A stretch of 64,000 nucleotides of DNA, from the NCBI GenBank assembly GCA_002633005.1, contig NMRA01000357.1, positions 138,048 through 202,047 of the forward strand, in the 5' to 3' direction. Of this stretch, positions 7,508 to 64,000 are shown piece by piece. Source of the DNA: Phoronis australis. Its lineage: Eukaryota > Animalia > Phoronida. Under the pieces are notes generated by a model. That model ran no database searches and was not told the origin of the DNA. It worked only from the letters and a program-made list of their open reading frames with translations. The position numbers and the translations under genes are program-made. Every line of letters starts with the position of its first letter. Position 1 is the stretch's first letter.

Positions 7508-7720
7508 AACACTTCATTACCCAATAAGGTAATGCACTGCACCCCATATCTGGTGGTCCATAGTTTTAGAACACTTCATTACCCAGCAGGGTAACACATT
7601 GCACTCCATATCTGGTGGTCTATACTTTTATCACCCTTGGTTACACAACAGGGTAATACATGGCACTCCACATCTGTTGTTCCATAGCTTTATTACTCTT
7701 TGTTTCACCACAGGATAATA
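7508..7720. repeat. Degenerate ~62-bp tandem repeat (~3.5 copies) followed by (TTA)n
   Basis: Recurring acacttcattaccca..ggtaa..gcactccatatctggtggtc units. Confidence 0.6.
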
Positions 7721-9017: not shown

Positions 9018-12000
9018 TCATGTACCCTTAAATAAGTGATAGATTATTGGCAAGGATACAGCAAGAACGCCATACACCATGGTTACTGTCACCAGAGAGT
9101 TAATCTTCATTTTCCACTCAAGATTCCTTTCCTGTTCATTCAACAGTGTCTCCACCTGGGGCCCCACATACACTACATTGTCTGTTGGCTGGGTTCCCGC
9201 TGCAATCACGTTTTTGATGGCAATCATTTCTTTCATTAATTCCTGGTTTCGGGAATTTATCAACTCCAAAGCATTCTTAGTCTGTACTTGCACATCATGA
9301 GTCCTTGATTCTGAAGAGACACCTTGCCTTGGGTGACCCATCTGTTCTGACACTGAACTATTACTTGCATTCTCATTAGCACCGGATAATCCAAGGAGAC
9401 TTTTCAAATCTATGACACAGTTGGCTAGGTTGTCTTGTTGCCTAGAAATTGTGTCCGACAAGCCTGTGACAAGTGATCGTACTTCTCCACTTCCAGCAGT
9501 TGACTCCTTTATCATTCCCCGCAATTCTCTCATCCTCAGGTAATTGTTCAACGTGGTACCAGTAATTCCGATCACTGCGCCAACAACGGATCCAATGATG
9601 GACCAGTACTTTGTGCGCTCAGTTCTAGTTCGTTCTTTCTCATGACTCTCCCTCACTGCCGCCGAGAGTGATGCAAAGTAATCCCTCTCGCTCTTCTCCA
9701 AAAATGTGATCTCCTGCAGGAGACAGCCCTCCTGTTTTAGAACCTGGTGCTCCTCTGTAAGGAGGGAGAGGTAGCGGTCATCTCCGCGGTTCACTTTCTC
9801 CAGTTCCACACCAATGGTCTTCAGCTGGGCTTGGACGGCCTGTAAGGCATGTTGCTTGTTCCTCCGATTGTCTTGGACATCTAAGAATCTTTGCTCAGCC
9901 TGCAGACAGAAATACAGTTACTAAACAAATACTAAAAAGGTGAAAGGCATCACCTGGCGCCATAAGCACTTATTGCCATATCACAAATGTACAACAACAC
10001 ACGTTAGAAAGATGTGTAAACTATACAACTTACTAATGCTACCATTACAAAAATCAATTCCATTTTTGTTTACCCTCATCACAAACACATGAAATTTGTT
10101 TAAAACACTTAATAAATTAATGTGCAGACAAACACCTTCATTAGAGTTTAAAGGTATCAATAATCAGTTTAGATCAACAAATACCTTCATTAGAGTTTAA
10201 AGTTATCAATAATCAGTTTAGATCAATAAACACTTACTTACTAAAAATATTGACACTTTTATTCCTTTTTTTTGGGGGGGAGCTGAGGGGCTTGAGAATA
10301 GTGCGTTTTGGAGTGCCTTGAAAATGGTGATAATGTGAATAGTTTCTTACATAACACACGTTCACATACATAACGACAAATGATCCTTGGGTTAATCCAT
10401 CATCTGACATGTAGAAAAAATGAGATCTTTTGACCGATGGTCACAGTCAAAGCTATATTGAATCATTCACAGTATTGTTGGCACACCACATTGTAATTGC
10501 ATGTAAGGACTCCTGGTGTAGATGTCTCGCTAAATGTAGGCATTAAACCGACCACAAAGTGAAAAGCAAAACAACATGCCATCAAAGATACATCATTCTA
10601 TGAACCAGCATACAGAATGGAGCAACTCCATAAAATTGCAAAATAAGTTATAAGTTTGCAATAAATTACAGCATTAAATCTATAGACATGACTAATATTT
10701 TGTGCCAGAAGCACTCAACTTCATAACCTGCACAGACTGTTGGAACTGGTTTTCTAAGGCACAAAAGAGTCGATAAGTTATACGCCAATTAACACTCTTG
10801 TTCAATGAAAATAGGTCAATAGGTCATGGAAACTTTCACAATTTCAATAAAATAAACAGGACAACTGCATGTAATAACATGGTACTTTGTACATCAACTG
10901 ACCTCTGATCAGCTTTCAACAAATTTTGTTACACTGCCAGACTGCATACAATTTACAGAAACTTCAGTTTTGTTTACTCCAATCTGGACACTTGGTAAAA
11001 ACCGGTCTCACTAACCTCCATACAGTGTGCATTCCAACAAAAAGTGAGCTTCTAAGGTAAAACCATAATTGGAAGAAATATCACTGAAGAGATAAAATCC
11101 CCATTGTCAACTCAGACCATTGGGGAGCGATCACATACTATGTTGTCAACAAATTTTTACTCCCCCCTCTTTCTGTCCTTATGAATCTAATGACGAACTA
11201 ATTTCAATTTATGATCGTAAGTTGCATTTGCTGCTGTTGTGTTCAGCACTGAAATAGAGTACATTGAATGCCATTTCAACCGAGGCAGCCCTTTTAGTAT
11301 GTGCCCACATATTTTTATGTGGGTGCATATGACAGTGTATCTTGTAAATGCCTTGTAGGATATTAATGAGATTTGATTATGTTTGTCTGTGTTGAAGACG
11401 ACGACAAATTTCGGGCCAATCTGACTACTAATGCTGTTCTGCCAATTTCCAGAAGGATCAACTAAATTTGCACCACCTGATGTCCAGTTAAATTTTTCAG
11501 CACATTTTTGCCATTAGCCTCTGTATCTGCTAAACAATTCAATGGCTCATTATGAACATGGACAGATTTGTTCCTGCTGAGAAGACCACAAACGGCATTT
11601 TTTTGTACAGGTGTTAACTGCTCTGGCACCCTTCAGTGGCAATTTTAGTTTTTTGCATCCATAGCTGTATCTCCCAACTCTTCAGAGGATCTTTTTGAAA
11701 TCTGGCAGATGTGTTCCTATGGAGATGGCAACAGATGGCGACGAGCTTCAGACCAATCCAACTACACCTATGTTCCCTATGACTCTTGACAAAGTAGGCC
11801 ACTTTGGTTGTATAGCAGGACTCAACATTAACACTTCATTACTTCTGGGGACTGTATTTAGTGCATAAAATGACCAGGTGGGACAATGACATTTATCAGC
11901 CTTGCTTCAAACAATAAACTTACCACTGCAGTGTCCATTTTAGAAAACCAGGGCATGGGTCAATTGATCCAGAAAGCCTAAAATATTTGGTACAGTTTAA

Positions 12001-19242: not shown

Positions 19243-36785
<17,543 letters not shown>

Positions 36786-42790: not shown

Positions 42791-45700
42791 CACCCCGGCC
42801 AACCCGCGATCGAGAACGACCGGAAACCGATCGAGAACGAAATTTGGCGCGAGAAGCGAAGCCAGAAAATGTAAGTAAATTTGACGAATTTTTGGTTGTT
42901 TTGAGCTTCAATACGAAAACAGAGACATGAGTTCAAGGCGTAACACATTGAGGAAGGACAGGTAGAAGTTTAGGCTTGTGTCTCGTCCAAATATTGGAGA
43001 AAAGTTACGTTAACCGATGCATCGCCTGAGCCGAAGGTGATTTGTATGTCATTTTTGCAGATTTTGGTTATTTTTGGTTCTATATCAATATATATTAATC
43101 ATGAAGTTATGAAGAAATGACGTATGAAAATGTAACCCAACACTTGTTTTCCGTAGCATTGTCAGGATCTCTGATTTATGAACCTTTTTCTGTTAAAAGA
43201 AGCGATCGAGAACGCAATAATAAGCGATCGGGAACGTACACTTGAGTTCGCTAAAGCGATCGGGAACGCATTGCGATGTGTTGAACATTAGTGAACTTTT
43301 CAGTAATAAAGTTACAAAACAAGTGTGGTTCAATGAATTAATGATATTTTGCATCATTATTGTGTTACTTTTGTGTCAAAAACTAAATTTCATAGCATAG
43401 CATCCCATACCAAAAAGGCCTCCTGCAAACACTTGCAGCAAGCTTGCCGCAAAAGTTTCTGCAAACCAGCCACAAACACATGGAATGATCTGTTGTAAGT
43501 TTCCTGCAACCCAGCCGCAAATATTGCAGCAAGCTTGCTGCATGTTTGCCGCTAGCATGCAGCAAACTTTCACCATGCAAATGAAGTTTGCAGCAAGCTT
43601 GCAGCAAACATCTCCATGTCCTTATTTGTAACAGTTCCTGCAAGGCAGCTACACACATTGCTGCAAGCTTGCTGCAAACATCTTCATGGGGTTATGGATA
43701 TTTTCACGATTTTATTTTTATTTCAGGAAACAATTTCATTCAACGACCATGAAAAAATCATTGCCCACGCTGTGGCGGTGCACCCTTCCAGGGTTTTAAA
43801 GTACAGACATCTCCTTTTAGATGAAACTACTGGGAAAATGGGACTCCAAACTAAGACGCACCCAGGAGTTATTCCACAAGACGTATCAGCTGGGGGAAAA
43901 CAAATTGTTGCGACTGATGAAAGTGAGTGCCGAATATCTTTACAAAACTGCGACAACAAAAGAAAAAAACCGAACACGCCAGTGAAGTCTTAGCAATGAT
44001 AGTGAGTTTGCAAAAGAAAATCTGAAAACAGATGAGACTCCCAGTAATGAAGAATTAGAATTTGACAAGTTGTGCTTCTTGCTTCCCCAAGTCATAGAGA
44101 CAATGAAAGAAAATGGTCTCATGGAATCTTTCGTGAAACTGAATGAACTTCTTGCCTCAGGTAGACTGCCTTTGAACAACATATGTTTCCTACTATTCCT
44201 GGATATAGTTGAGTGGTTTTCGGTGGAAAACACTTCCAAAATGCGTTACCAAAACCCACAAACTCTTCGGTTCTGGGAAATTGGCTACCAGCTATTTCAT
44301 GGAAAGTTCATCAGATTTATGTCTGGACAACGAAATACAGGTCAGATTTTAGACCAGTCAACAGCAAGGGGAGAGTATAGCCCAGGTGAATCCAAAGTGA
44401 ACGTTGCAGTGCCATCTCTGACTACATTACAACATAACCTTTCTAAAAGGAGTCCGTTTTTTCCAGGAATATGCAGGCAGACAATTGAAAATATAGCCCA
44501 CACTGATGAAAGCTCTCCTGTAATTTTAGCTGTGGATGGAAAAAAATAAGTCGCGGAAAGGGCAAACGCATGGGGGATATTGACCTGTGGGGTTTTGAAC
44601 CAAAGCCAACTCTTCAGGAAAGACTGAACCAAGTTGAAAGAGAAGTGGAATTCGTGAATGAGCTAACAAAAGAAACGGATAGACTAATGACCTATAGTGT
44701 TCAGACCATTAGTGCAATACCCTCAACGTCACGTGAAAAAATTCATTCTGGACTCGTTGAATTGATTAAGTTCATAGGATATCGTAATAAAACAATGAGA
44801 GACACTGAACAGACCCTAATCCGCTCTGAAGAGAAGTTCAAGCGACTCGGCGGAGATGACTGGATGAAATCCAAGTATTTCCCGGTCATCTCTTTAATGA
44901 GGACAAAACGCAGTGAAATTCGTGCCCACCTAAAAGAAGGTCTTCAGCTATCAGACGAGATCACAAAATTGGGAATTGACCTAAATGGGAAATCAAACCT
45001 TTATTCCGAGAAGTTAGTTAAGCTTGCAGAACAACAGAACTTTTATTCACTGAACCCGAACTTCAATAAGTCAACTGATCCACGTTACATGCAACAAAGA
45101 ACTCCGGAGTGGTTTTCTTTGCGCAGCGAAGCGAAAGTTACTGGAAGTACAGCCAATTGTGCACTCGGCTTAGAGACCTTAAAAAGACAAAAAGAACATT
45201 TTCATCAAGTAATTCACGGCATAGAAAAACCTCGTCACAGTGCACTTAACACTCAGAGAATGCTTTATGGAACTGAACACGAACTGGATGCAGTCGCAAC
45301 AATGACATCTAAAGTGTTGCCGTTTCTGTTTCCAGAACTGAGCTATTATGAAGAAGGATGCCAAACAATACCCCACGGCGACAAAGCAGCATTCATGGTA
45401 GTGAGTTCGGATGGCAGTCTCAGGACAAATGATAATGCAGAACCAATAATGATGTATGAAAACAAGTGCAAAGCACCCCAGTCCTATAATCCTAACGCAT
45501 ACTACAAGATTCCTAAATATTACACTGTACAGTTACTCTCTGAGATGTTTGCTTACAGATGTGACAAATTACTCTTTACGTGCTGGTCAGAGACGTCACT
45601 TACTGCTTTCATGGTTAATTTCGACCATCATATGTGCTGGGAGGAATTAATGACAGAAGTGTATGGCAGTCCAAATCCAAAGCTACCTACCAAGTTCAGA

Positions 45701-45953
45701 CCTAGTCGAAAGCTCATCCAAGAACAAATTGCTGCATTTATGGAGAATAACATCCACTTTCTCGGTGAGTTTATGTCGTGTGTTGCTGCGAGATCACCAT
45801 CGTTAGACATCCAAAGTGATGACGCTTATATATCGCCACAGAGTTCAAATGACGCCAAGCCAATTTCTACAGCTAGAGACTTACAGAACTGCCTTGTGTC
45901 GACGAAAAACTGGTTTAATCGGGCTTATCAGTTGTCTAGGACAACTGCATCCG
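42791..45953 (+). mobile_element. Truncated copy 1 of the CACCCCGG-TIR transposon (left TIR, intron, 5' part of the YqaJ-DDE ORF); ends at N 45954
   Basis: Near-identical to 47495-~50703. Lesions: 22-bp deletion at ~43740, +1 at ~43991, -1 A at ~44545. Confidence 0.9.
43727..45953 (+). pseudogene. Frameshifted partial YqaJ-containing transposase (ORFs 43616-43993, 44070-44549, 44570-46102)
   Basis: Same peptides as copy 2 (VILAVDGKK, DLWGFE, QRTPEWFSLR, SSDG, YENKC). Sequence after the N is unrelated. Confidence 0.85.
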
Positions 45954-46859: not shown

Positions 46860-47174
46860 ACAGTGGGTCAAGAGATGAAAATTGTCACTGGGATACATCG
46901 TCTTTGACAAAAGCGCAAGGTTTGAAGTAGTCCATGATGAACGGGTCAAATGTAGTTGCGCCTGTAACTATTTTGAATGGACTTGACAACCTCAAAGGGC
47001 TTAGTACCAAGTTGAAAAAACGAGATGCTGTAGATGCTTACAAGCTCATTCACACAGCAGTTGACGAAGTGCAACGATTAAGAACAAACATTGAAGATTT
47101 TTGTCTAGGTTGAATGGCTCCAAGACATGGAAACCATACCTGAGGACTGGATCCGATATTCAAATTCCTCGGCA
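46860..47174 (+). pseudogene. Decayed hAT (THAP12/ZMYM1-like) transposase fragment
   Basis: Translation NGLDNLKGLSTKLKKRDAVDAYKLIHTAVDEVQRLRTNIEDF...DIQIPRQ. Confidence 0.65.
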
Positions 47175-47330
47175 GGCCCGGTATCCAATCCGTACTCAAA
47201 CTCATACTCATACTCGAGATTTCATACTCAAAATCGTGCTCACTGGAGTCGTACTCAAAAAAGCGTATCTAATGTCATATTTCGAGTAGACTCCAAACGT
47301 ACTCAAATCTGTCACTCATACTCGAGTTGC
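47175..47330 (+). mobile_element. Left end of a GGCCCGGT-TIR element; matching right end at ~59300-59519
   Basis: ggcccggtatccaatccgtactca.. versus ..tgagtacggagattggggaccgggcc. ACTCGA-rich subtermini as in 21205-21594. Confidence 0.7.
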
Positions 47331-47572
47331 TATGGAACTCTTTATGATGTGAAATACAAAATCACGCAAAGCCGCGCTGATTCATCGCTCCCTATTGGAA
47401 TAGACCATCCCAAGAACTAGGCCTACATTATCGTCTGCTGTCGCAACAACTACAAGAGTATGTCTATAACGTGGAATTCTGAGTGTTCTGTAACCACCCC
47501 GGCCAACCCGCGATCGAGAACGACCGGAAGGCGATCGAGAACGAAATTTGGCGCGAGAAGCGAAGCCAGAAA

Positions 47573-50500
47573 ATGTAAGTAAATTTAACGAATTTTTGGT
47601 TGTTTTGAGCTTCAATACGAAAACAGAGACATGAGTTCAAGGCGTAACACATTGAGGAAGGACAGGTAGAAGTTTAGGCTTGTGTCTCGTCCAAATATTG
47701 GAGAAAAGTTACGTTAACCGATGCATTGCTTGAGCCGAAGGTGATTTGTATGTCATTTTTGCAGATTTTGGTTATTTTTGGTTCTATATCAATATATTAA
47801 TCATGAAGTTATGAAGAAATGACGTATGAAAATGTAACCCAACACTTGTTTTCTGTAGCATTGTCAGGATCTCTGATTTATGAACCTTTTTATGTTAAAA
47901 GAAGCGATCGAGAACGCAATGATAAGCGATCGGGAACGCACATTTGAGTTCGCTAAAGCGATCGGGAACGCATTGCGATATGTTGAACAATAGTGAACTT
48001 TTCAGTAATAAAGAGTTTTAAAAGTTACAAAACAAGTGTGGTTCAATGAATTAATGATATTTTGCATCATTACTGTGTTACTTTCTTGTCAAAAACTAAA
48101 TTTCATAACATAGCATCCCATACCAAAAAGGCCACCTGCAAACACTTGCAGCAAGCTTGCCGCAAAAGTTTCTGCAAACCAGCCACACGCACATGGAATG
48201 ATCTGTTGTAAGTTTCCTGCAACTCAGCCGCAAATATTGCAGCAAGCTTGCTGCATGTTTGCGGCTAGCATGCAGCAAACTTTCACCATGCAAATGAAGT
48301 TTGCAGCAAGCTTGCAGCAAACATCTCCATGTCCTTATTTGGAACAGTTCCTGCAAGGCAGCTGCACACATTGCTGCAAGCTTGCTGCAAACATCTTCAT
48401 GGGGTTATGGATATTTTCACAAATGATTTTATTTTTATTTCAGGAAACAATTTCATTGTTATTATTGCCCGGCAAGCTTCAACGACCATGAAAAAATCAT
48501 TGTCCACGCTGTGGCGGTGCACCCTTCCAGGGTTTTAAAGTACAGACGTCTCCTTTTAGATGAAACTACTGGGAAAATGGGACTCCAAACTAAGACGCAC
48601 CCAGGAGTTATTCCACGAGACGTATCAGCTGGGGGGAAACAAATTGTTGCGGCTGATGAAAGTGAGTGCCGAATATTTTTACAAAACTGCGACAACAAAA
48701 GAAAAAAACCGAACACGCCAGTGAAGTCAAGCAATGATAGTGAGTTTGCCAAAGAAAATCTGAAAATAGATGAGACTCCCAGTAATGAAGAATTAGAGTT
48801 TGACAAGTTGTGCTTCTTGCTTCCCCAAGTCATAGAGACAATGAAAGAAAATGGTCTCATGGAATCTTACGTGAAACTGAATGAACTTCTTGCCTCAGGT
48901 AGACTGCCTTTGAACAACATATGTTTCCTACTATTCCTGGATATAGTCGAGTGGTTTTCGGTAGAAAACACTTCCAAAATGCGTTACCAAAACCCACAAA
49001 CTCTTCGGTTCTGGGAAATTGGCTACCAGCTATTTCATGGAAAGTTCATCAGATTTATGTCTGGACAACGAAATACAGGTCAGATTTTAGATCAGTCAAC
49101 ATCAAGGGGAGAGTATAGCCCAGATGAATCCAAAGTGAACTTTGCAGTGCCATCTCTGACTACAATACAACATAACCTTTCTAAAAGGAGTCCGTTTTTT
49201 CCAGGAATAAACAGGCAGACAATTGAAAATATAGCCCACACTTATGAAAGCTCTCCTGTAATTTTAGCTGTGGATGGAAAAAAAATAAGTCGCGGAAAGG
49301 GCAAACGCATGGGGGATATTGACCTGTGGGGTTTTGAACCAAAGCCAACTCTTCAGGAAAGACTGAACCAAGTTGAAAGGGAAGTGGAATTCGTGAATGA
49401 GCTAACCAAAGAAACGGATAGACTAATGACCTATAGTGTTCAGACCATTAGTGCAATACCCTCAACATCACGTGAAAAAATTCATTCCGGACTCGTTGAA
49501 TTGATTAAGTTCATAGGATATCGTAATAAAACAATGAGAGACACTGAACAGACGCTAATCCGCTCTGAAGAGAAGTTCAAGCGACTCGGCGGAGATGACT
49601 GGATGAAATCCAAGTATTTCCCGGTCATCTCTTTGATGAGGACAAAACGCAGTGAAATTTGTGCCCACCTAAAAGAAGGTCTTCAGCTGTCAGACGAGAT
49701 CACAAAATTGGGAATTGACCTAAATGGGAAATCAAACCTTTATTCCGAGAAGTTAGTTAAGCTTGCAGAACAACAGAACTTTTATTCACTGAACCCGAAC
49801 TTCAATAAGTCGACTGATCCACGTTATATGCAACAAAGAACCCCGGAGTGGTTTTCTTTGCGCAGCGAAGCGAAAGTTACTGGAAGTACAGCCAATTGTG
49901 CACTCGGCTTAGAGACCTTAAAAAGACAAAAAGAACATTTTCACCAAGTAATTCACGGCATAGAAAAACCTCGTCACAGTGCACTTAACACTCAGAGAAT
50001 GCTTTATGGAACTGAACACGAACTGGATGCAGTCGCAACAATGACATCTAAAGTGTTGCCGTTTCTGTTTCCAGAACTGAGCTATTATGAAGAAGGATGC
50101 CAAACAATACCTCACGGCGACAAAGCAGCATTCATGGTAGTGAGTTCGGATGGCTGTCTCAGGACAAATGATAATGCAGAACCAATAATGATGTATGAAA
50201 ACAAGTGCAAAGCACCCCAGTCCTATAATCCTAACGCATACTACAAGATTCCTAAATATTAATTACGCTGTACAGTTACTCTCTGAGATGTTTGCTTACA
50301 GATGTGACAAATTACTCTTTACGTGCTGGTCAGAGACGTCACTTACTGCTTTCATGGTTAATTTCGACCATCATCTATGGGGAATGTGCTGGGAAGAAAT
50401 GACAGAAGTGTATGGCAGTCCAAATCCAAAGCTACCTACCAAGTTCAGACCTGGTCGAAAGCTCATCCAAGAACAAATCACTGCATTTATGGAGAATAAG

Positions 50501-53500
50501 ATCCACTTTCTCGGTCAGTTTATGTCGTGTGTTGCTGTGAGATCACCATCATCAGACGTCCAAAGTGATGACGCTTATATATCGCCACAGAGTTCAAATG
50601 ACGCCAAGCCAGTTTCTACAGCTAGAGACTTACAGAACTGCCTTGTGTCGACGAAAAACTGGATTAATCGGGCTTATCAGTTGTCTAGGACAACTGCATC
50701 CGAGATTCTGGTCTACATGGTGAACGATTTAGACCGGACTTACCATGCCGAAATAAATGTTGCTCATCCTATAGCGTATGCAATGAAGGGAACAAGCATG
50801 AATAATGCCACATTGAGAAGTATGATGAATCACGTTATCTCTGAATGTGAAGCAAGGGGTCTAAATGTGCTGGCCACATCTAGTGATGGACAATGGCATA
50901 AGTACGGAGTTCGCGGTGATGACAACGAACCATTGACTGTCTTGCAATTACAGAAAGATCACTGGTCAAGTGTGATGTCACAAGATAAGTAGACGATTAT
51001 GTCCCAAATAAAATCTAAAGCAAGTGTAAAGAGTTTTCCTGAAGATGTCCAAAAAGAGTACAATGTCAATGGTTCCGTGACTGTCTGGCACAAGACAGAT
51101 TCACCGATGATAGGGTATCTAAACACAGAGCACTCAAAATCCCAGAGAAATGCAATCATTGATGCTACTTGCCAGAACAGATATGATGGAACTGAATCTC
51201 AGCTGTTGTCTGTAAAAGAAACATGTCTCGCACTCCTTGAGGATGAACACTTTGAAAACACCTCTGTCGAAACTCTAAATGCTGTTGAAAATATAATTGA
51301 AAGCTCAGTAACAAATAACGTGCATAATTCGCATGAGTTCCTTGGACAGGACTATTTTGTCGAACCATGGTTGTTCCAAGAAGAACCAGGTGCTACACAA
51401 AGTTTTGGCGTAACATCTGACATGCTCTCTGGGGCTTTTGAGGTCATGTACAGTAATGGCCATGACGACTTCTATGTGCAAACTGTGGTCGATATGAGTG
51501 TTGATAAAATACCTTTAAGAAGAGATGGTGACCATATGGAATTGGGCGCAGAAAATCTCAACTACACAGTATATGCCAATGATGACAACACATGTGTGGA
51601 CACAGAACATGTACTTGAAAGTAAGGAGAATGGAAATGCGGAGCTGTTAGTTTCTGAGAATCGTTACACTGTGGACACTGCAACCTCTGAATCCATGCTG
51701 AATGCTTTAAAAGCAAATGAAATGGCTGAAAACTATCATAAATGGTCACAAAAAACTGTTGAAGACTTCAAAAGACTTTTTGCATGTAAGACCACTTGCA
51801 ATAAGGCACTCCACAAGTTTGAACTCCAAATGTGTCTACAAGTGTTACGTGTGCAGCACGGTTTTTGTTTTGACATTAAACCTTCAAAGAAAGAGCTAGT
51901 TCAGTTGTTCACGTCTTCATTGAACTTTGGGGTAAATCCCCCTAATAGGAAGTATCATCAGCGCAATCGAAGTGTTTGCTCACTTAGAAAAATGTGTTGT
52001 TCTGTTTTAGAACGTGCATCAAAACAAGAGCTTGCTAAGATTCTCGTAGAAAACACATGGGATAAAGCTTTACAACAGTGGATTGAATCTGGACCATTGT
52101 ACCACACTTCGTGTTTTCTTGATAGTGAAAATAGTATGAAGAATTGGTTTTCTCGTCCAAATACTGACCAATACGGCAAGAACAGGTTCCACTTCACCGA
52201 CACCTGTCACATTTTGACTTGTATTAGGACAAAACTCTGTACTACTGGAATTGCTGGTTTGAAGCGAAAAGCATGGGAAGATGTTGCTCTATCTCGCAAA
52301 ACCCATCTCAATATTGCTGTGATTGAGGATTGCGTTGACAAGCAAGATGTAGCTTTAGCAAGACGTGTATTTTCCAGGGATGTTCAAGAAAATATGCTTG
52401 ACGAATACGTCAACGAGAAAAAAATTTGTGAGTTAATACGAAACTGGTTTGATGCCGAGGACGAGCCTGCCATACCTGCTGCTGAAAGATGCATCCGAAG
52501 GNACCTGCCGCTGAAAGATGCATCCGAAGGCTTCGACTTAGAAAATGGCTTTTAGAAGAATTTGCAGTGAACACGTTTCCGCCACAAACCCGATATATCA
52601 GAGGCATACCGATACAGACTTTCGAGGCATTGTTGGTGCACTTGGAAAGGAAAATGCAAGTTTTCCCTTTCTGCAGAAACCAAACATATAAGGTTCGTGC
52701 AATAGGTTCTCAGCAGGTGGAAAACTTCTTATCAACATTCCGAGATATGGACTCCACTGGACAAGGGACACCAAAACCAGACTCCATTCCTCATATGATG
52801 ACAGCAGTTGCAGATTTAGACAACTGCAGAATTGACCCAAGCAGGTAAGCATGATTTAGAATCAAGCTTGTTTCCTACACATGATTAACTGTAAATTACG
52901 TGGACATATCAACTCTCATGTTTGATATTTTACAAAAGTGTTTTTTCAGTTAAAATTTTGAAGATGTGGCAACAAAACGCTCCGTGAATAAAAAATGAAA
53001 AAATGTTACACATACCTATCCTCTGAGCTGTGACGGGAAAACAGTTTTGAGGGCGATGTAAGTGTAAATTTATTTTCACACAAGGGCTTGTATGTATAAT
53101 CAAAATAGATAGGAACTAGTTGAACTGTAAGAAATTATATTAATTTAACAATTAGCTTGTCATGTTTTGTAAGAGGTGCCACTAAGAATTTAAATTGTTT
53201 CAAATGCATTCACGTTTACATGTTTAATCTTCTATAAAACCCCCTACTTGGTTTCAGATCCTTCTATATGTCAACCACACGAGCCGGAGTGTATCCAACG
53301 AGACAATTTGAGTCCGATGAAACCCAAGAATGTTTTCACTACCAAACGCAAGGCGTTCATTCTGCATTAGTTTCTAGTCTGATAACTCCAAGGTTAGTGT
53401 TATGTGATACACGTTAAGTGTAATTGTTTTCTTATATACATTACTTTTTTCTGTAGTCAACTTTCTCTTTTTTCGTCTTCATCTATTCGTTATCANGACA

Positions 53501-54635
53501 ACTGCAGAATTGACCCAAGCAGGTAAGCATGATTTAGAATCAAGCTTGTTTCCTACACATCATTAACTGCAAGTTACGTGGACATATCAACTCTCATGTT
53601 TGATATTTTACAAAAGTGTTATTTTTCAGTTAAAATTTTGAAGATGTGGCAACAAAACGCTCCGTGAATAAAAAATTAAAAAAATGTTTCACATACCTAT
53701 CCTCTGAGCTGTGACGGGGAAAAAGTTTTGAAGGCGATGTAAGTGAAAATTTATTTTCAGACAAGGGCTCGTATGTATAATCAAAATAGTTAGGAACAAG
53801 TTGAACTGTAAGAAATTACATTAATTTAACAATTAGCTTGTCAGGTTTTGTAAGAGGTGCCACTAAGAATTTGAATTGTTTCAAATGCATTCACGTTTAC
53901 ATGTTTAATCTTCTATAAAACCCCCTACTTGGTTTCAGATCATTCTATATGTCAACCACACGAGCCGGAGTGTATCCAATGAGACAGTATGAGTCCGATG
54001 AAACCCAAGAATGTTTTCACGGCCAAACGCAAACCATTCATTCTGAATTAGTTTCTAGTCTGATAACTCCAAAGTTAGTGTTACGTGATACACGTTAACT
54101 GTAATTGTTTTCTTATATACATTACTTTTTTCTGTAGTCAACTTTCTCTTTTTTCGTCTTCATCTATTCGTTATCATGTCGCGTATTAGTGCTGATAAAG
54201 TCACGTAAAGCACCATTGTTTTAAAAAATATTCAAATCGTGGCATTTTCAAATAAACAAGGTCTTCATGAGCGCCGGGTCAAAAATACCCTTCAATAAAT
54301 AAACGTCCAAGCGCTTATGCGTCGTATTACGGTATTTCCACTACTTTGAAAACAACGGGCAAGTGTAATGCAGCTTACAGGCTAGCGTCGAAAGCTTTAA
54401 AGGAGGATTGATTACTCATTAAATTTTGAGACGTCATAAGGTCGTAACCCTTTCATTCTCTTCAGTAGACGACGATACAAAATTCAAGATTCCTTTTTCC
54501 AGGGACCATTACTTTGAATCAGTGCAAAGAGATCGGAAGAAGCATCTTCGGAAAGGAGGGAAAGTGTCGTTGCCAAGCGAGTCCGCCCATGGTGAGAAAG
54601 GAGTGCGACAACACCATTCGCGAGATGACTCGTAA
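47573..54635 (+). pseudogene. Spliced transposase gene: AT(47573-47574)|48444-52844|53258-53392 (dup 53939-54073)|54503-54635; reconstructs to ~1,545 aa. N-terminal C2H2 finger, DDE RNase H motifs, inserted YqaJ domain
   Basis: MKQFHCYYC-x12-HAVAVH. D1 VILAVDGKKI. YqaJ QRTPEW..R..KVTGS..YGTEHE..SSDG..YENKC..YYxxQ. D2 VLATSSDG. DxxH TDTCHILTCIRT. VDKQDVALARRVFS, LIRNWFDA, and E in RAIGSQQVENFLS. Lesions: +4 at ~50260, in-frame TAG at 50990, assembly overlap at 52502. Confidence 0.82.
48117..48403. mobile_element. CCC..GGG-ended non-autonomous element built of GCAAGCTTGC palindromes, inside transposase intron 1 (also 43404-43690)
   Basis: cccat...atggg ends and repeated gcagcaagcttgc(t/c)gca motifs. 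Present in both transposon copies. Confidence 0.6.
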
Positions 54636-55342
54636 ACGACTCGGATTTCAAAATTTGTCAGAAGTTGTGTAGCCAAAAGTATTGTGGTGATAAAAGTGGT
54701 GGGATTTTGTTTAATGGTTTACTAATAACATCCATACCGAGTTGAACAGACTGACTTGCTACATCCTTGTGACTTGTATGTGTTTTGTGTTCTTGGTACC
54801 GAGTTCACTGTGCTATTTCAGTTCATGGGACATTGAAAAAGAGTGAGAGGAGCTGTAATACACATACTATATTGTGATTTTCTAAAAACGTAGTGACAAT
54901 GTTGTCTTTAAGTCTTTTCAAGACACACTATAGTAACTACACTGGAAATCAACAATATGAAAGCAAATTCCGTAATATTAGTAATTGTTTAGTCACACAT
55001 CATCTCAAAATAGGTCATAAAAATATATAAAATATAGCTCTGGGTAATCAACATTACAAAGGCATTGAACATTCCCCACGAGGTATTTTTGGAATGCATT
55101 GCACTTATCATAGACACTCATTTTCTTTTTAAAATCTTATGGTAATAACAATGGCCAATGGCACTTAGTATGTCATTTGAATATACCTAAACACTACAAA
55201 AATGCACTGGTTCTGTTTAAGATAGATAAAATAACACAAATGTAGAAACTTTAGAAAAAGGTTCAAAATATCACACCTGGCAACTGCCAACCATAAACTC
55301 TTTTAATCAGAATAAAAACTTAAACAAATTTCACTACTGGAC

Positions 55343-56679
55343 TTAATGAAGCTTCTGTTTTTTGTGCCTACAGAGGGAGGCATAATGCTTGTACGATTTG
55401 CCGCATTCACAACAGAAAGCAGTGACCTCATGTTGTGACGCGATGTGTCGCTTTAGGCTCACTTTCTCTGTGAAGCATTGGTTGCAGGCAGGACACTGCA
55501 TTGTCTTGTCTCCTGAGCACAGTGCTTCATGTTGTGACTTTTTGTACCTATCGAAAAACCTCTTGCCACATGAAACACATAAAAATGCTTTGTAGTTTGC
55601 GTGCTGGCTCATGTGATCTTGAAACTTTGTTTGTCTCACGAACACTTTCCCACAGTCCGTCACTGGGCAGGTGAACGTCTTGGTTGCAGTCCTGTCACAA
55701 TGCTTTGTTGCCATGTGGTCAAGCAGTATTGATTTTTTACTAAACGAAGCTCCACAAGTCACACATAGTCCTTTGTCACAAGCACTAGTTCTCCTTTTTG
55801 AAGGTGTAGACGTTAAGAAGCGAAAAGACTCATCTTGTGGCAGAAGTTCAACTAAAAAATATCAAAAGCATTTCAGTTATACTTGTTAGGTGAAATCTCA
55901 CAAAAATCATGAAAAACAGTGAAGTATAATCAACAATCAACCCACCCGGCGCCTATTTCAGGGTACGTATTAAATGTAAAACTGACATAACACCGTAACT
56001 TGAACGAGTATTCAGGCCAATGCATAGAAAAAGAATGTGCGTTCACGATCGCTTTTTTGCGTTCACGATCGCCATATGAAAGTAAGGATTTCGTTCTCGA
56101 TCGCCGTCTCACACAAGGACANAAAAACAGTGAAGTATAATAAACAATCAACCCACCCGGCGCCTATTTCAGGGTACGTATTAAATGTAAAACTGACATA
56201 ACACCGTAACTTGAACGAGTATTCAGGTCAATGCATAGAAAAAGAATGTGCGTTCACGATCGCTTTTTTGCGTTCACGATCGCCATAATGAAAGTAACGC
56301 TTTCGTTCCCGATCGCCGTCTCTCACAAGGACAAACTTGTATTGGTAAATATCTCGAATTGCTTCACAAAACATAACTTCGAAAGGTGTCACCTGGGGCA
56401 ATGAAGCTCTAAACGTCACACTTCTTTACTTTAGAACTCTGGAACTGCTAATAACAAGTAAAACTTGTCGACTTTACGACGCGCAAGGCATTTTATCGGA
56501 AGGCATTACTTTCTGGGCCCTTTATTTGATAAAAGTAGCAAAAGCCAAGCATCATTTCATATCGGCAACAAAGGTTAAGCTCTCACGCTTTTCTCTGTGT
56601 CGCATTCGTGCCAAAGTAGCCACTATTTAAGAAGAAAATGACACTAAGACTCACCGGGTACATCATCGTCGTCTGCCAT
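55343..56679 (-). CDS. Transposon-borne C2H2 zinc-finger protein, 5 fingers, ~177 aa; exons 56679-56655 and 55851-55343
   Basis: MADDDDVP|gtgagt splices (phase 1) to tttttag|VELL...CVTC..HMATKH, CPVTDC..HMSQH, CVSC..HEALC, CPAC..HIASQH, CEC..HKKQKLH. Frame is intact. Confidence 0.85.
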
Positions 56680-58104
56680 TTTTGCGGCAAAGTGGCGTTC
56701 TCGATCGCTTTCCGGTCGTTCCCGATCGCGGGTTGGCCGGGGTGATTACTGCTAATTTCCCTGGTGCAAGTCTTCGACATGTGGCCACAAATTCACAAAA
56801 GACCTAAGGTTACTATATTCGTGGACAATTGCAGTCAACATGGTCAACTAACTGACAAAAAGTGTGTGGATGCTGAAGCCCTGTGTGTGCTCTATGACTA
56901 TGCAGTTCCATTCGGAGACTACACAACATTACTTGGTAAGTTTTTAGCAATCAGTTTCTATCAACATCGTTTGGTGATGTTATCCCCACCAGTTACCCCA
57001 CTGAATAACAGTTTTATTTAGTGGAACTAAGTGTTTCTTTTTGGAAACTCACCCGATGCCGGGTAGGCTAGCAGCACATATTCATATTGTCCTGGGTATG
57101 AGTGCTCCCAAAATAAGAGGTGTATGGTACGTGATGCACAGAAGTCAAGAGTGACTTTTTCACAGCAGTTTCTCTTCAAAACTATGCTGTTTCCAATAAA
57201 ATTCTCTAGATGAGTGAGTTTCCTTATTTTATCGTGGACCCCACACCCAGGACTACCAGCTCAGTTATAGAATTAACATGAATAAGCCTTAATTCAGTAA
57301 ATGTTGTAACATTGCATTGGAAAAAATTGACACCTAGAATGAATTTTACTTGTTGAGATCAGAAGCACATTTTAAGGGTTATGAAAAATACACATTGTTA
57401 AATCACTCTTAGCCTGTTTCACATATTTTAATTCAGATATTAAATAAGACTTGGGTACAAAGGTTATTAGTTTCTACACATAAACATGAAGATGAAATGT
57501 CAAGTATGTTCTGCCTTACAAAAGTAGTTGTGTCTTGTCTTTTCTTTTACAATTTGCTAATATTTCTATTCTGTTACAGGCAAGAAAAAACAACTGAAAC
57601 CAACCGCNAAACAATTAAGTATCACTTTATTAAGCTGAATCACGTTGACAACAATTGAAAAACGTCAAATGTATCAGGAAACAAGTCATCTGAAAACAGT
57701 TTCACGAAACCATAACATTCTGTAGGCCTACATGTACATGTACACCGTGATGAAAAGATACACAAGAGCAGTTCGCAGATGGACTAGATGTACACTGAGA
57801 GTACACAAAAACTCTGGCCTGGTCCGTCACGAGACCAAAAGTACACCTGTGGTTGTTATCCCTATAACTGTCGCGGGACCAAACAGTACTGGCTGAGATA
57901 AATAGTTTTACAAAGCACACTTTGGTGAAAAACATCACAAGTCTAGTTCGCCGAGAGACCAGAAGTGCACTGAAACTCGATATCTACACAAATCAAGCTG
58001 GCCTGGTCCGTCGCGAGACCTAAAGCGTACTTAGCAAAAAATTTTGAATTGAAAACTTCTCTCTAGACACTTTTTAATCCCCAGTGGATGCTCATACGTG
58101 TAGT

Positions 58105-58720
58105 TCATACATCTGGTGGTCAACTTCTGCGAGAGGTTGTCTAGGAAGGGTTTTCGCACCGTTCTGTAGTACTCACTGGAGGAAACAAGTATGGAGTACA
58201 GATTTAACTACGCACTACGTGAAGTAAGATTTTGGATATGAAGCAGATAGACTCAAGTAGAAATACAAACCAGAATCAGTTTCTGTGCTCTCGTAGACCC
58301 TCTGCTGTACTGGGCAAATTTGGCATGTCCAAAAATAATTTCTATTTTGTTTTCATTTTACACAAGCATAAAAAACAGACATTATTACAAACTGTGTATA
58401 ATTATAACTTATTACCTGGGTGTTTCTCCGGGAACGTTGGTCCTATCTTTCTGTTGTCTAGACTGCCGGGGATCTGTACATCGGATCCAATGGTTTGCTG
58501 CTCTTGGAATCATTCTACCTAGACATCTTCGACGTTTGTTCCCAACGCTTGCACTTCGTCAACTGCTGTGTCAATGAGCTTGTACGCCTCTACATTGTCA
58601 GAATATCGTTTCGCAGCTCAGTTGGCACTAAGCCCCCTGAGATAATCAAGTCCATTCAAAAGACTTACAGCGTGAGCAACTAAATTCGATCCGTTCATCA
58701 TGGACTACTTCAAACCTTGA
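58105..58720 (-). pseudogene. Inverted second copy of the decayed hAT segment
   Basis: Reverse complement matches 46920-47174 and 59560-59836 plus 60649-60700, without the insertions. Confidence 0.7.
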
Positions 58721-59519
58721 CGATGTATCCTAGGACCCATTTGCATCTCTTGCAATTTTCGAAATAAACGTCCCAATGTCTGAACGCTTGAAACCTGAAG
58801 TACTAACANCAAACAAAATCTGGAATTCCATTTGGGGATTGAGGAATTATAGATGACTAAGTTATGATGAGAAATGTACCTGACATGGAAGCGAACAGTT
58901 TTTAACTTCCCTCCCCTCCTCGTCTTTTTGAAACCCTACAAAACGTAGGCACACATAAAGAAATAAGGGCAGCACAAACTTCTCACACGACTTTTCCCAC
59001 AACTGCTTTCGACGCTTGTTATGACAAGGGATTACAATGCACCTGTTGCCAGGAATTGTAGAGGTAGAATGGCGGCCATAACATACTTTGATACGGCGGG
59101 TTAATAAGGTGAAGACTAAGAAGATTAAAGATGAAAACTATTATCTCTGAACTGAAATTGAAGTGCTGAGATACGGTAAGAGGACTTATTTTTTAGATTT
59201 GCTGTGTTTCTTGGTTCCCTTTCGATATTTTGTTCTCTGGCTCGTATTTATTTTCGAGTACAATTTCAAGCACACTGCCATACCAAACTTGAAATTTAAG
59301 CATAGACTCGGAATTTTTACTCAAAATCGTACTCGAAATATAGATGAGATACACTTCAGTTCGAGTACACTCGAAAACTGAGTACGTGCTCGAAATTTCG
59401 AGTACAGATTTTTCGAGTATGACATTGAATACACCAAAGCTGAGTCTGTACTCGAGTTGAGTATGAAGTGTGAGTTTGAGCATGATTCGAGTCTGAGTAC
59501 GGAGATTGGGGACCGGGCC

Positions 59520-61065
59520 CACTCCATGAGCAGACGGCTAAAGTTTCTGCAGGAGCACTCAGGTAATGTATTATAATTCTACAGGTTTTGTAGGAAAATA
59601 GTGTGAGTTTGCTGCTTGTGTGCAATAAACAAGAAATAGAAAACATTTTCGAACATATTAAATTTACCCAGTAAAGCACACGTTCTACGAACGCACAGAA
59701 ACTGATTCTAGTTTGTATTTCCACTTGGCTCTATATCTGCTTCATAACCAAAATCTATGTGACGTAGTGCGTAGTCAAATTTGTTGTCAATACTTGTTTC
59801 TTCTAGTGAGTACTACAGAAGAACAGCGGAAATACCGGATTGTTCTAAAACGCCCTGGATCCCCACGACCCCCCCTACCCATGACCCACGACCCCTTCCA
59901 CCCACGGTCCACAACCTTTTCGACACAGTCTACACATGTTCGACTCGATCTGAACACAGAACAAGCGCTGACTTGCAGGACCATCGAGTCTGGACGTGAC
60001 CTCGGTTGCTTTTTCTCTGTTTTTTGCAATTAATAGAGTCGACGATTCGACAAGTTTGAAAGCCAAAAAACAGAAAAAATAAACAACACCACCAAATCAA
60101 TTTAAAGACCTACCAACGTTACAAAGTTCGTTCCCGACAGAATGTAATCGTCTCGTCTGCTCTTCAGTGAATGTCAGATTCAAGAATTTTTGGGAGAGTG
60201 CAAGGAACCCACAAATATGTAATTTCTTCAGTAAATATAGTTTGAAAACAAAACTGTTAACTAAAAAAAGTATCTCAACGTTACATGGAGTATATAGTAA
60301 ACGAGTATACAACAGAAAACAAATAATAAAAATGTGAAATTATGTGCATTCACGTTAACGCACTCTCACCCCAAGTTTAGAAGAACAGGGGCATCAGTAG
60401 CCGCTCGTAAAACTATTTCCGTGACAACGATAAGCACGCTCACAACTCACTCTTTCAGATCATGTTCTTACGCTACTTTCTGTTTTTAACGACCAGGCTT
60501 GAGCCAGAGCAGATTCACGAGTCACTCAGCAACGTAATATGATTATGCAATGTGTAAAAATCGTAGATGCATCTGTTGCCGCAGGCCGTGGGTGGAGGGG
60601 GTCCAAGGGGTCGAGGGATGTGGAGGTCGAGTGGCTTTAGAACAATCCGGAAATACCCTTCCTAGACAACCCCTCACAGCAGTTGACTGACCAGATTTCG
60701 AAAGACAAAAAGCAGATGGAAGCTGTCATTTCTTGTGCCATAGACAGGATGAGGGATGCAGACTTAGGCTCACTGCAGGATCGGCTGAATTTCTGGGACA
60801 TAGACTTGCCATCACCAGACTATCGGCATTTTGAGTAACACCAATTGCATTATGTTTCAGCGAGAGCTCCTTCTGAAATGCTCGAAGTCGAGAAGAAATG
60901 CCAAGTAACTTGCGTTCCCCACTCAAGCACGCACTCGGACAGCGACATCTTCCCAAACGTTAGGGAGCTGATATTGATAGGATGTGTATCCTCTATTGGA
61001 TCCTGCGAGGCAGGGAGATCATTTCCTGTTCTCAGGCGTTTGAAGACACTTTTGAGGGTTGCTAC
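59520..61065 (+). pseudogene. Continuation of the decayed hAT transposase, including the hATC dimerisation domain, interrupted by a MULE-type MITE
   Basis: EYYRRTAEIP|FLDN..; DSDIFPNVRELILIGCVSSIGSCEAGRSFPVLRRLKTLLR resembles hATC FPNI..LL..LPVTSCEAERSFS.LRRLKT.LR. Confidence 0.75.
59837..60648. mobile_element. Mutator/MULE-type non-autonomous element
   Basis: TIR GGATTGTTCTAAA...TTTAGAACAATCC. Perfect 9-bp TSD GGAAATACC at 59828-59836 and 60649-60657. Confidence 0.85.
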
Positions 61066-64000
61066 TGTATGTCTGAGGAAAGGGTTGCAGGGTTATTACT
61101 GAGGGCCATGCAGTGCGAAACANGCATAAACACACGTTTTTAGGGACTAATAGTTTAAGGGCTTAATGTAACTTCTTTCCGTAACATACCGTAACATGTT
61201 GAAAAACTCGTGGCATGTTGTATGAAAGATTGTCGAAAGTGGTTCTACGACTGGAGTTGAAAAGATATCAAAGACCAAACTACTCCAGGTATCCAGCCAG
61301 GGCCACAGGTCGGTGCTTATAAAGAATGGCTAGAACTGAGTATAATTGTCAGGTTTGTTAACTAATTTTGCCGAGATTGTATGAAACAATACATCAGGAG
61401 TCTCTCTTTATGAAAATCAAGAACAAAATGAAAAAGAAGCAATGAAATGAGGCATGATTTGATAACTACAACTCTCGATCAAAACTCAGACCAGCAAACA
61501 ACCGGAAATTCTCAATGCAAACTCTCGCGGCTAGCCAGTCTCTGCATGCAATGAGAGAAAACACATGATGGGATTAGTGAGTGGGACATTACGACTACCA
61601 AATAAATTGATATTAATAATTTGGCATTCACTACGTGACAGCGCTTTTTGAAGGGTTGAAAGTGGGTGTCACTCAAGTACTACCTACTACAAGCAAGTTT
61701 GCGGGCTGTGGACATTGAAAGGCATGTTGATGGATAGATCTTGGAAGTGTGAACAGATTTAAGAAATCTCACGAATGTGCTTTTTTCATTTTTTGTTCTA
61801 CAATGTCCCAATATTGCGTATTCCACACTTTTTCAACTACGTTTTTTTGTGACTTCATTACATTTAAAATGATTTCAAGGAGAAAAAAATAACGAGAATC
61901 AACGTTTTAGATACCATAACGCTGTCTGACATACATGTATCCATACACCATTTCACCCACTAAGAGTTTATAACTGACCGTGGGTCAGAGGTTACGCAGG
62001 CGCAGGCGACGTCATAGTTGCCTTGAACCAATACCCTAAACAGTTGACACCTTCAGATACAATTTTTAGGCCGGCATCAATAACATGTGAGTTTTAATAA
62101 AATATAAAATAAAATTCGTGCACTATTTCAAGGCGATTTAGCTTTTAGTTATAAACGATTCTTTTGAATTAAGGGTTTGAGACCACATGAAGCGGACGAA
62201 CCGAAAATTATGTTTTTACTTTGACGACAAAACCTACATCACAGGAAAGGCATCGCTGTCTGAAACACAAAATGAAAACAGTATCAAAATCACATGGTGC
62301 GTTAAAAAATTATCACCATTTAGGTGTCAAATTTTGACTCGCTCTTTTGATCGGGTAGGCCATCTTGGATGCCAGGGGCATAGATTACGAGATTAAAAGT
62401 ACTTAAAAATTATTTTTACAAGTATTCCAACAGTAAAATTTAGTGACACATATCCTTACCTACCATTCTTTTTAATTCAAGAGTTTTCACCAGAATTTAA
62501 TCACGCATGTATTACTTATTGAATTGAGTGATTGAAGTGTTCACATTTCACGTTGGACAACATAGGTAGTTCTGCTGAACTGAAAGACATGTTTTGACCC
62601 AGTTACTTAAATAATTGTCATTGGTGAATATTTAACTACATGTATAATACACACTGCTACAAAAAGCGGTTTTGAACAATTTTTTAATGCTTGTGCCATA
62701 ACTATTATGAATATTCTATATATTTCTATGTGAAAGTCCATTCAAATGAACTTGCACTCTTGCTAAAAGATCGTTTGAAATCGTTTTATGTCCGAAGGTC
62801 AACTTTTCTTCAAGGCATGATTATATGTCACAACAGGACACACATTTTTCAAATTTTCATGCATAAATTATGTTTTTGATTCATGTTTTGTAACAAGTTG
62901 CTTTTTACTTCAAGATATATCAAAACAACAAAATGTGAAAAGTCTTAAATGATTTACAGAAATGGGTTACGTTTCCATGAAGTGTGAAGCTTACGCGAAT
63001 CTCTGTCTCATAGCTTCATACTTTTATTATCGTGCTTGTCAAATTCTAGTTTAAGAAGAACGCCTTTATGGTACTCAGTCGGCATGGTAACAGTATGTCC
63101 ACTTTGACACTTAACGTGATTTTGGTTCAGCTTGTATTGCTGGAACTCTAAGTTACTTATTGTGGCAAAACGTTGTAAGGATCATTTTAATTCACATATT
63201 AATTTGTACTGAGATGTAAGCCTTGGCTACAATGACAGTTTGAAACCCCTGCGTGCAATGTTTTTAAGAGATATCATTTTTATATCATATGGGAGCGTGA
63301 CAACAAGTGACAAAACTCCAAAACTCAGATTCCGGGTACAGCATCAGGTAGCAGCTGACGAGGGGGGGGGGGNCTCCGGTGAGACATATGAACGATTTCC
63401 AAAATACTAAAACTGTCACTGTTGGGGCAGCACACGTTACAATCATTCGAAAACATGCATGTAAATAATATTAGGTTTTGGCCAAATTGGAAGTAAGAAG
63501 TGGAAAACAAAAATGACGCTAGAGTGCAGCACGTGTACGACGTTTCGATATTCATCAAAAGTCATCCTCAGGTACAATAGCACACAGGAAACAATCGTAA
63601 CAGAATGCTAGATTAATATCAAAACATCGTTTTTAAACATGCATATGTCATCGTATCCTCTACGGAAACGTTTGGGCAAAGGAATCTAGTTACAGAAACT
63701 GACACCATCAGTAGTAGAATTATCTAAAAATTGACGTCAACTGATTTGATCACTCTAGAAACAAATTTGCAAAACTTAATGAAGCCCCTTTATGAGATAC
63801 AAGTGCATACTGCCCGTCGCCAGGTAGTGTAGAATACGCGATGTTAGGTCCTTTCTATCGGCTGTTGCTTGAAAACAAACAAGAAGCCCATTTTTTTATT
63901 TGCTTATTTTCTTATTCAGACAGCAAACTGGTGGAAAATATTATTGGAAATCACCAAAACCCCGCAAATTGGCCCTCAGAGTACCTCAAATTAAAATGAC

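Follow-up and report, generated by a model that had tools for sequence, protein, structure and literature searches.

A predicted P-fold transposase with an internal lambda-type exonuclease domain in a two-gene transposon of Phoronis australis

The DNA considered here is a stretch of 64,000 nucleotides from Phoronis australis (contig NMRA01000357.1, positions 138,048 to 202,047 of the forward strand), called the window throughout, and within it an element at 47495..56744 whose transposase gene also encodes a YqaJ/lambda-type exonuclease. The locus raises two questions: to which known transposons such a protein is related, and what a nuclease could do inside it. The window is animal DNA, with spliced genes and with EGF-repeat and PRORP genes, and the element is a DNA transposon with two terminal inverted repeats (TIRs), transcribed, belonging to a recently mobile family and no artefact. 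With moderate confidence we regard it as an invertebrate TIR transposon whose transposase, of predicted P fold, holds a complete lambda-type exonuclease after strand 1 of the RNase H fold, the nuclease likely trimming the breaks left by excision.

The transposase and its predicted fold

The element and a second, partial copy comprise the following features (positions in the window).

42791..45953, plus strand: 5' 3.2 kb of the second copy, 96% identical, with a different left flank and its own frameshifts, stopping at a contig end (N)
47495..47543, plus strand: left TIR, 49 bp, starting CACCCCGG and containing two CGATCGNGAACG motifs
47573..47574, plus strand: end of transposase exon 1, the AT of a split start codon, placed from sequence
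47905..47970, plus strand: left subterminal trio of CGATCGNGAACG motifs, from a motif search
48444..52844, plus strand: main transposase exon, from the C2H2 finger to E, disrupted by four extra nucleotides at 50258, a TAG at 50990 and a 29-nt overlap at 52481
49834..50400, plus strand: YqaJ/lambda-exonuclease domain, from PF09588 and a fold match, its end approximate
53258..53392, plus strand: transposase exon 3, with GT-AG splice reads in runs X6, X7 and X8, repeated at ~53939 by an assembly overlap
54503..54635, plus strand: transposase exon 4 to the stop, with splice reads in the same three runs
55343..55851, minus strand: exon 2 of the second gene, five C2H2-type fingers, with opposite-strand RNA
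56251..56315, minus strand: right subterminal trio of CGATCGNGAACG motifs, repeated at 56040-56103 by an assembly overlap
56655..56679, minus strand: exon 1 of the second gene (MADDDDVP), beginning 17 bp inward of the right TIR, with splice reads
56696..56744, minus strand: right TIR, from an inverted-repeat comparison and contig ends at the boundary

Joined from the window exons, the spliced transposase is 1,545 residues long. Its GT-AG splices are seen in three raw RNA runs that are labelled with the same species (X6, X7 and X8; depth mostly below 10 per direction over the element), with 3, 14 and 1 reads, respectively, for 52844 to 53258 or its duplicate, and 6, 7 and 2 reads for 53392 to 54503. 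Intron 1 (GT-AG, 47575-48443), which splits the ATG, is placed from the sequence and from the starts of homologues, the RNA reads containing no such splice; the joined N-terminus, MKQFHCYYC, agrees with the N-termini of homologues. Sequencing run X3 (X3 and X4 are two runs of one sample) has 14 extra letters after 54632, and the transposase of intact copies may end differently from that of the window copy.

Along the main exon the order is C2H2 finger, D1, a helical bundle, the YqaJ domain, strands 2-4 with D2, a second insert, DxxH, GBD-like helices and E. The catalytic codons are D278 (49273), D814 (50885), D1252xxH1255 (52199-52210) and E1416 (52720), with further motifs at residues 753 (EILVY), 1298 (DKQD) and 1332 (RNWF), and D1, YqaJ and D2 all lie within one contig. 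The nuclease displays QRTPEW (465), TGS, E527, D570 in SSDG, E586-x-K588 and Q610, like YqaJ/lambda exonuclease PF09588 in its motifs (QxSxxWxxxR, TGS, E, SxDG, ExK, Q) and fold, and it scores above the Pfam cut-off (22.7 bits against 22, on the copy at 42791). The D2 segment matches TNP-like_RNaseH_N under the cut-off (E=5.8e-4) and the N-terminal C2H2 finger gives a Pfam E-value of 0.11; by regular expression this finger occurs in 12 of the 48 proteins of at least 1,300 residues, and is hence no general trait of the family. No THAP domain was matched by Pfam in the window frames or in 12 homologues, nor by a C2CH regular expression in any of the 48 long proteins. The second insert, ~400 residues between D2 and DxxH (window 50890-52195), consists of an acidic disordered stretch and a well-folded helical module (model residues 812-960; conserved W, K and L).

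A region search returned 12 long homologues (27-46% identity) and a profile search 14, while phmmer against 1.84 billion cluster representatives (clusters at 50% identity) gave 2,103 matches at E<=0.001, 1,141 at 1e-10 and 383 at 1e-30; the best 150 were inspected, and weak matches may reflect the nuclease alone. In an alignment of 149 rows, drawn from 168 proteins and counted where a column is covered, the transposase residues are strongly conserved (D1 88/89, D2 127/130, D of DxxH 111/112, H 111/113, E 100/103), as are those of the nuclease (E 119/123, D 131/133, E 129/131, K 122/124, Q 126/135). In lineages that share 23-45% identity, the catalytic and phosphate-pocket residues of the nuclease reach 93-99% conservation. 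Its D, E and K are kept in register in 69 of the 75 rows that have both D1 and D2, and the spacing between these two residues is 494-602 in 74 of the 75 (536 in the window protein), against 73 in Drosophila P (D230 to D303; PMC7776569).

An AlphaFold2 model was obtained for the homologue P0006 (residues 128-1323, 54 alignment rows; pLDDT 83.9, pTM 0.74). After strand 1 of the model (64-73, with D70) come long helices, then the nuclease (~246-450), a helix that leads back, and strands 540-548, 560-568 and 594-600 (D601), which places the nuclease between strands 1 and 2 of the RNase H fold. A second insert of ~390 residues, with a disordered acidic stretch at 691-811, leads to strand 984-989 and D990xxH; further helices follow, and E1155 is located on helix 1152-1164. 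A fold search of 48,161 solved chains ranked the Drosophila P transposase 6p5a highest (Z 30.7, rmsd 2.5 Å, 317 residues), aligned from model 39-1196 onto P 195-569, a range that includes D230, D303 and E531. Other transposase folds scored far lower (RAG1 Z 10.7, Hermes 10.0, Transib 9.3; RAG/Transib range 9-12). The nuclease part, 246-450, matched LHK-Exo (Z 15.4) and lambda exonuclease (Z 14.7; overall 14.7-15.6 over 172-186 residues), and Foldseek likewise ranked 6p5a/6pe2 on top and lambda exonuclease next. Because one rigid alignment spans from before D1 to after E and covers all three catalytic residues of P, the split pieces are predicted to form one P-type RNase H domain. In the window protein D278, D814 and E1416 are thus predicted to meet in one P-like site with the nuclease outside on a helical bundle, the geometry of the triad being inferred from the rigid alignment as a whole and not from residue pairs or distances.

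A preliminary description of this DNA had proposed a spliced protein of ~1,545 residues with the named motifs in this order, a P-like core in which D1, D2 and E form a DDE triad, a YqaJ domain inside the catalytic domain, and the lack of THAP. The exon model agrees in length and motif order; the predicted fold and the deep alignment, in which the triad is conserved, support the P-like core and its single RNase H site; and alignment and fold searches together put the nuclease where it had been placed. Neither Pfam nor regular expression contradicts the lack of THAP. The Pfam check that the description had suggested succeeded for YqaJ and fell below the cut-off for TNP-like_RNaseH_N, its N-terminal finger is present in the window protein but is not general, and the second insert of ~400 residues had not been mentioned.

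Hosts of the family and relation to known transposons

The same architecture, for which the preliminary description had suggested a search, was found in other animals, namely in proteins of molluscs, an annelid and amphioxus. The named hosts are Owenia fusiformis, Mytilus galloprovincialis, Batillaria attramentaria, Branchiostoma belcheri and Crassostrea virginica (a host name is attached to 3 of the 20 proteins in one look-up set). A weak search for shorter, insert-less relatives gave 28 proteins of 46-67% identity; they look like pieces of this same family, and no insert-less form was recognised among them. In viral contigs none of 16 pattern matches was confirmed and there was no sign of a viral host; matches in BFVD are generic YqaJ nucleases. 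The GTDB genomes contain a single 3.2-kb contig, in a metagenome-assembled genome (MAG), and metagenomes yielded four loci from 97 matches, none with both element ends. The ESM Atlas holds one cluster, 'hypothetical protein' (58 members, YqaJ 64%), possibly the protein's own. Homologues in bacterial MAGs of Sedimenticola and Ca. Thiodiazotropha (L005, P0020 and P0188; one annotated YqaJ viral recombinase) are most likely host DNA contamination, and those that contaminate symbiont MAGs in this way get annotated as phage recombinases.

In the comparisons that follow, the cited papers are drawn on in excerpt. The element resembles the P superfamily (Drosophila P, 1360, Galileo, THAP9; 6p5a) in its RNase H fold with D, D, DxxH and E, in the helical GBD-like insertion ahead of the final E, in TIRs with internal repeated motifs and in a spliced gene. 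It differs in being without a THAP domain, which some THAP9 orthologues also lack (PMC10824691), in the insert of 470 residues that carries a lambda exonuclease behind strand 1, and in a D2-DxxH insert of ~400 residues against 33 in D. buzzatii P (PMC3698922). A second spliced gene, of C2H2 type, lies between the TIRs, here and in the metagenome locus L003, where P elements have a single transposase gene, and the flank pattern fits a symmetric 5-bp target better than the 7-8-bp target site duplication (TSD) of the P superfamily. The residues of P that contact GTP are K385, K400, V401, S409, F443, D444, N447 and D528 (PMC7776569). In a register set by motifs, V (42/114), S (83/114), Y/F (99/114) and D/N (112/116) are roughly kept, and the K400 site (S/N/D) and the D528 site (L/Q) appear not to be. 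An RNase H fold that takes up 470 extra residues behind its first strand is, to our knowledge, unusual.

Several superfamilies carry accessory exonucleases, among them ISL2EU, KolobokE, KolobokD and Dada. KolobokE (PMC9587614) also unites, in invertebrate hosts, a C/DxxH-type DDE domain and a PD-(D/E)xK lambda-exonuclease-like nuclease in one protein, but its nuclease lies downstream of the transposase domain instead of between D1 and D2, and its termini are RR..YY with a TTAA TSD, against CAC..GTG, non-TTAA flanks and a P fold here. ISL2EU (PHIS; Han et al. 2015, PMC4482050) is likewise a two-gene animal DNA transposon with YqaJ; its YqaJ is a separate open reading frame (ORF), its transposase is PIF/IS5-type, and the excerpt states the function of the extra ORF as unknown. 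In our element, by contrast, YqaJ is inside the transposase ORF (as in 69 homologues), the fold is that of P and the second gene is C2H2. In Dada of Laccaria and Ectocarpus (PMC3706591), elements that target small-RNA genes, the catalytic region of a DxxH-type DDE transposase is also interrupted by an exonuclease, of the DEDDy 3'-5' type and placed between D2 and DxxH. Ours is a PD-(D/E)xK nuclease, located between D1 and D2.

CAC termini are characteristic of CMC and Transib elements, and Transib has a 5-bp TSD. The present element shares with CMC/Transib/RAG its CAC termini and, if the flank inference holds, a Transib-like 5-bp TSD, but the signatures of these groups are C(2)C and H(3-4)H (PMC12730594) and the one here is DxxH; among the alignment columns at or above 85%, no C..C or H...H was conserved between D2 and E. 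Kinship with CMC on the strength of the CAC ends, which the preliminary description had called CMC-like, was rejected given the DxxH signature and the P fold (Z 30.7 against 9-12 for RAG and Transib).

In a full-text literature search, mainly of open-access papers and without Repbase Reports, no P-like element with YqaJ was described, 'YqaJ' together with 'P-element' giving none; the Repbase class list, as excerpted from PMC4455052, is without detail. With its lambda exonuclease inside the transposase, the family forms a large lineage of P-fold transposons that is apparently undescribed in the open literature and possibly a new superfamily. The view of the preliminary description that it fits no nameable superfamily holds for the open literature searched, its predicted fold being that of P. 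It is somewhat unlikely that the family already bears a name in Repbase or Dfam, for example under P, and is just absent from open papers: homologues do occur in well-studied genomes mined by repeat curators (Crassostrea virginica, Mytilus, Branchiostoma belcheri, Owenia), but the architecture was not met in the literature searched, Kojima and Bao, in the excerpt of PMC9587614, give a lambda exonuclease for KolobokE only, and UniRef labels the homologues merely 'YqaJ viral recombinase domain-containing'. A wider picture we regard as possible rather than probable: an undescribed branch at superfamily level, represented by hundreds of lineages among molluscs, annelids and amphioxus. Its transposase would be THAP-less and possibly GTP-independent, with a working exonuclease in the RNase H core; its elements would have CAC ends, a 5-bp TSD and a separate zinc-finger gene, and a single enzyme would cut, resect and choose the repair pathway of its own donor break. 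The P fold had so far been known from proteins that bear THAP; with this family it gains a second structural branch.

Possible role of the nuclease

Copy gain by cut-and-paste transposons and the processing of P-type ends are open questions. With nuclease and DDE site in one polypeptide, a single point mutant would separate resection from cutting, and natural nuclease-dead lineages offer a genomic control. In the mechanism proposed here, whose resection and gap repair the preliminary description had also suggested, the transposase would bind the repeated CGATCGNGAACG sites and excise the element with its DDE site, and the element would insert into a short AT-rich target, with a 5-bp duplication as the best guess. 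The cut would leave 5'-phosphate ends on the chromosome flanks. Lambda exonuclease, whose ring is a trimer, is a 5'-3' nuclease that prefers 5'-phosphorylated ends, with which the title of 3sm4 is consistent. From these 5' phosphates on the chromosome ends, the tethered nuclease would degrade the strands in the 5'-3' direction, and the resulting 3' tails would tilt repair towards homologous gap filling with the sister chromatid as template, restoring the element at the donor site and raising its copy number. Donor breaks of P are repaired by homologous recombination or non-homologous end joining (PMC7776569), and that resection by the nuclease steers donor repair to homologous gap filling has, in our estimate, a chance close to even but short of it. 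The C2H2 protein might, speculatively, be an accessory DNA-binding factor that replaces the missing THAP domain.

Counted in favour of a P-fold transposase with an internal, break-trimming nuclease are the codon differences between the two window copies, 22 synonymous and 25 non-synonymous among 751; without selection a synonymous to non-synonymous ratio of ~1:3 is expected. Several points weigh against it. The model is that of P0006, 35% identical to the window protein, and not of the window protein itself. By sequence alone the kinship with P is weak, with PF21787 mostly under its cut-off and no match to the C-terminal families of P, and a profile search of PDB sequences gave no real match among the 7 listed. 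The TSD is inferred from consensus flanks and not read from a copy with both its own flanks. Lambda exonuclease is a ring (1avq title) and P transposase a dimer or tetramer. Finally, five of the 75 homologues (P0103, P0137, P0138, P0146 and P0164) have lost the nuclease motifs and keep DDE and DxxH, so that the nuclease is not always needed. In a midpoint-rooted tree of the DDE core made by a quick method (56 rows) these five fall in two separate places nested among intact proteins, one of them sister (support 100) to an intact protein; one further homologue row has the nuclease K replaced by N. The five are full-length proteins and either natural controls for the role of the nuclease or domesticated genes.

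Trimming of the element's own non-transferred strand, as a step of transposition that yields 3' extensions like the 17-nt overhangs of P, is an unlikely alternative task for the nuclease. P ends carry 17-nt 3' extensions by a cleavage mechanism given as unknown in the excerpt of PMC7776569, and fusion inside the catalytic domain, conserved in 69/75 homologues, would suit such a step; yet P has no exonuclease domain and still produces these ends, processive digestion would have to be halted somewhere, and the homologues with dead nuclease motifs retain the DDE. Decidedly improbable is a nuclease that acts outside cut-and-paste, for example in clearing excised or extrachromosomal DNA, or whose main contribution is structural or lies in DNA binding. 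In favour of it, the catalytic motifs have been lost at least twice independently with the domain still in place, and unrelated transposons have captured several kinds of exonuclease (PMC9587614, PMC3706591), but the 93-99% conservation of catalytic and phosphate-pocket residues across 23-45% identity argues for selected catalysis in most of the family.

Ends, second gene and surroundings of the element

The TIRs of the window element are 49 bp each and 47/49 identical, with termini CAC...GTG; they bracket the genes as the preliminary description had it, which gave their length as only ~35 bp. The 12-bp motif CGATCGNGAACG is present twice per TIR and three more times inward on either side, and is absent from the 7.4-kb interior and from 1-42790 and 57000-64000 of the window. 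Its subterminal copies are likely to be binding sites, putatively of the transposase or of the C2H2 protein. The copy at 42791 begins at the same base as the 47495 element but after another flank, and contigs leave the TIR at 56744-56747 in 24, 11, 6 and 3 different ways in run X3 (at least 44) and in 10, 2, 5 and 2 in run X4 (at least 19), which together make the element boundary exact and indicate many insertions in the family. Contig depth ratios (TIR 7,729; interior ~120; junction contigs 2.6-8.7), which are no copy number, hint at a great many non-autonomous ends and at full copies in the tens.

The window consists of contigs joined at nine single Ns, and the element spans four contigs. 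Assembly overlaps at the Ns inside the element measure 29 bp at 52481, 680 bp at 52819-54176 and 211 bp at 55912-56333; the first two are left out by X3 contigs at full depth, and the third shows the same duplication pattern. The 9,250-bp span between the previously given ends is inflated by these overlaps, and the true element length is ~8.3 kb. The flanks at 47200-47494 and 56745-56940 are very high-copy repeats of two different families, and reads over empty sites of either one run on into sequence unlike the opposite flank. Since the empty sites continue differently, the left and right ends stem from different insertions, and no TSD is readable at the window copy; an empty-site comparison found no intact copy of either flanking repeat within the window. 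Physical linkage of TIRs and genes, assumed beforehand, is upheld by contigs and splice reads that bridge every N inside the element, although the window copy is a composite of different insertions. The spread over four contigs and the flanks from different sites could suggest that the fusion or the element is an artefact of an N-joined scaffold, but this is barely conceivable given that bridging, the same two genes at L003 and the fact that D1, YqaJ and D2 share one contig and recur in 69 independent homologues, which refutes an artefact for the protein.

The four extra nucleotides at 50258, a frameshift, are missing in X3 and in 3/3, 3/5 and 1/3 RNA reads of the three runs, and the TAG at 50990 has another base in X3 and in 6/6, 9/9 and 3/3 RNA reads. 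Intact members exist in the family; the copy in the window is dead.

Eight outward flank consensus groups (merged consensus of X3 and X4) have A/T at +1, +2, +4 and +5, a variable +3, G at +6 in 7/8 and G/C at +7 in 7/8, a consensus of W-W-N-W-W-G-S. The window flanks, read outward, are ATTACTG, GTTACAG and TAAAAGT; they share the AT-rich core and have G at +6 in one only. TTAA was not read in the three window flanks or in the eight consensus groups. A symmetric target preference centred on +3 implies a 5-bp duplication, as 7 or 8 bp would pair A/T with G/C positions; judged from this consensus of unpaired ends, the TSD is probably ~5 bp as a best guess, 3 or 4 bp being also possible.

The element has two genes, as first described, a spliced and transcribed C2H2 gene standing beside the transposase. 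It encodes a protein of 177 residues with five C2H2-type fingers (Pfam zf-C2H2, E=6.7e-15), and its splice 55852/56657 is found in 4 reads of X8. The first mate of transposase splice reads is always minus, and 55048-56028 is mostly read in the opposite direction. The two genes are convergent, each starting at most 80 bp from an element end and pointing inward. At L003 an intact homologue of 1,406 residues is likewise followed by a convergent C2H2 gene; the finger proteins of window and L003 are 27% identical, which may be generic finger similarity only. Upstream of the C2H2 exon of L003, at 7225-8382 on the minus strand, more spliced exons of coiled-coil character are seen, and in that lineage the second gene could extend much further.

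A palindromic TGCAGCAAGCTTGCTGCA-rich repeat is located in the first intron of the transposase gene (48135-48410) and again at 43430-43690. Reads at 48135 and 48408 continue into other sequence, so that this repeat looks like a nested small element. Elsewhere in the window the following genes and open frames were recognised.

5316-7007, plus strand: PRORP (protein-only RNase P), a single open frame of 563 residues, E=9.7e-66
9018-9917, minus strand: open frame of a coiled-coil protein of 299 residues with two hydrophobic segments, without Pfam support
24298-29785, minus strand: EGF-repeat gene with long arrays of 37-residue EGF repeats, 19 in one frame

The open frame at 9018-9917 we presume to resemble CCDC51/MITOK. 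Two decayed fragments of a coding-like repeat, 75% identical and in opposite orientation, are found at 46916-47175 and 58463-58719, and their translation is reminiscent of the end of a hAT-type transposase. Between 58119 and 60687 lie nested inverted-repeat pairs (I3, I12 and I23), which are probably further non-autonomous elements.

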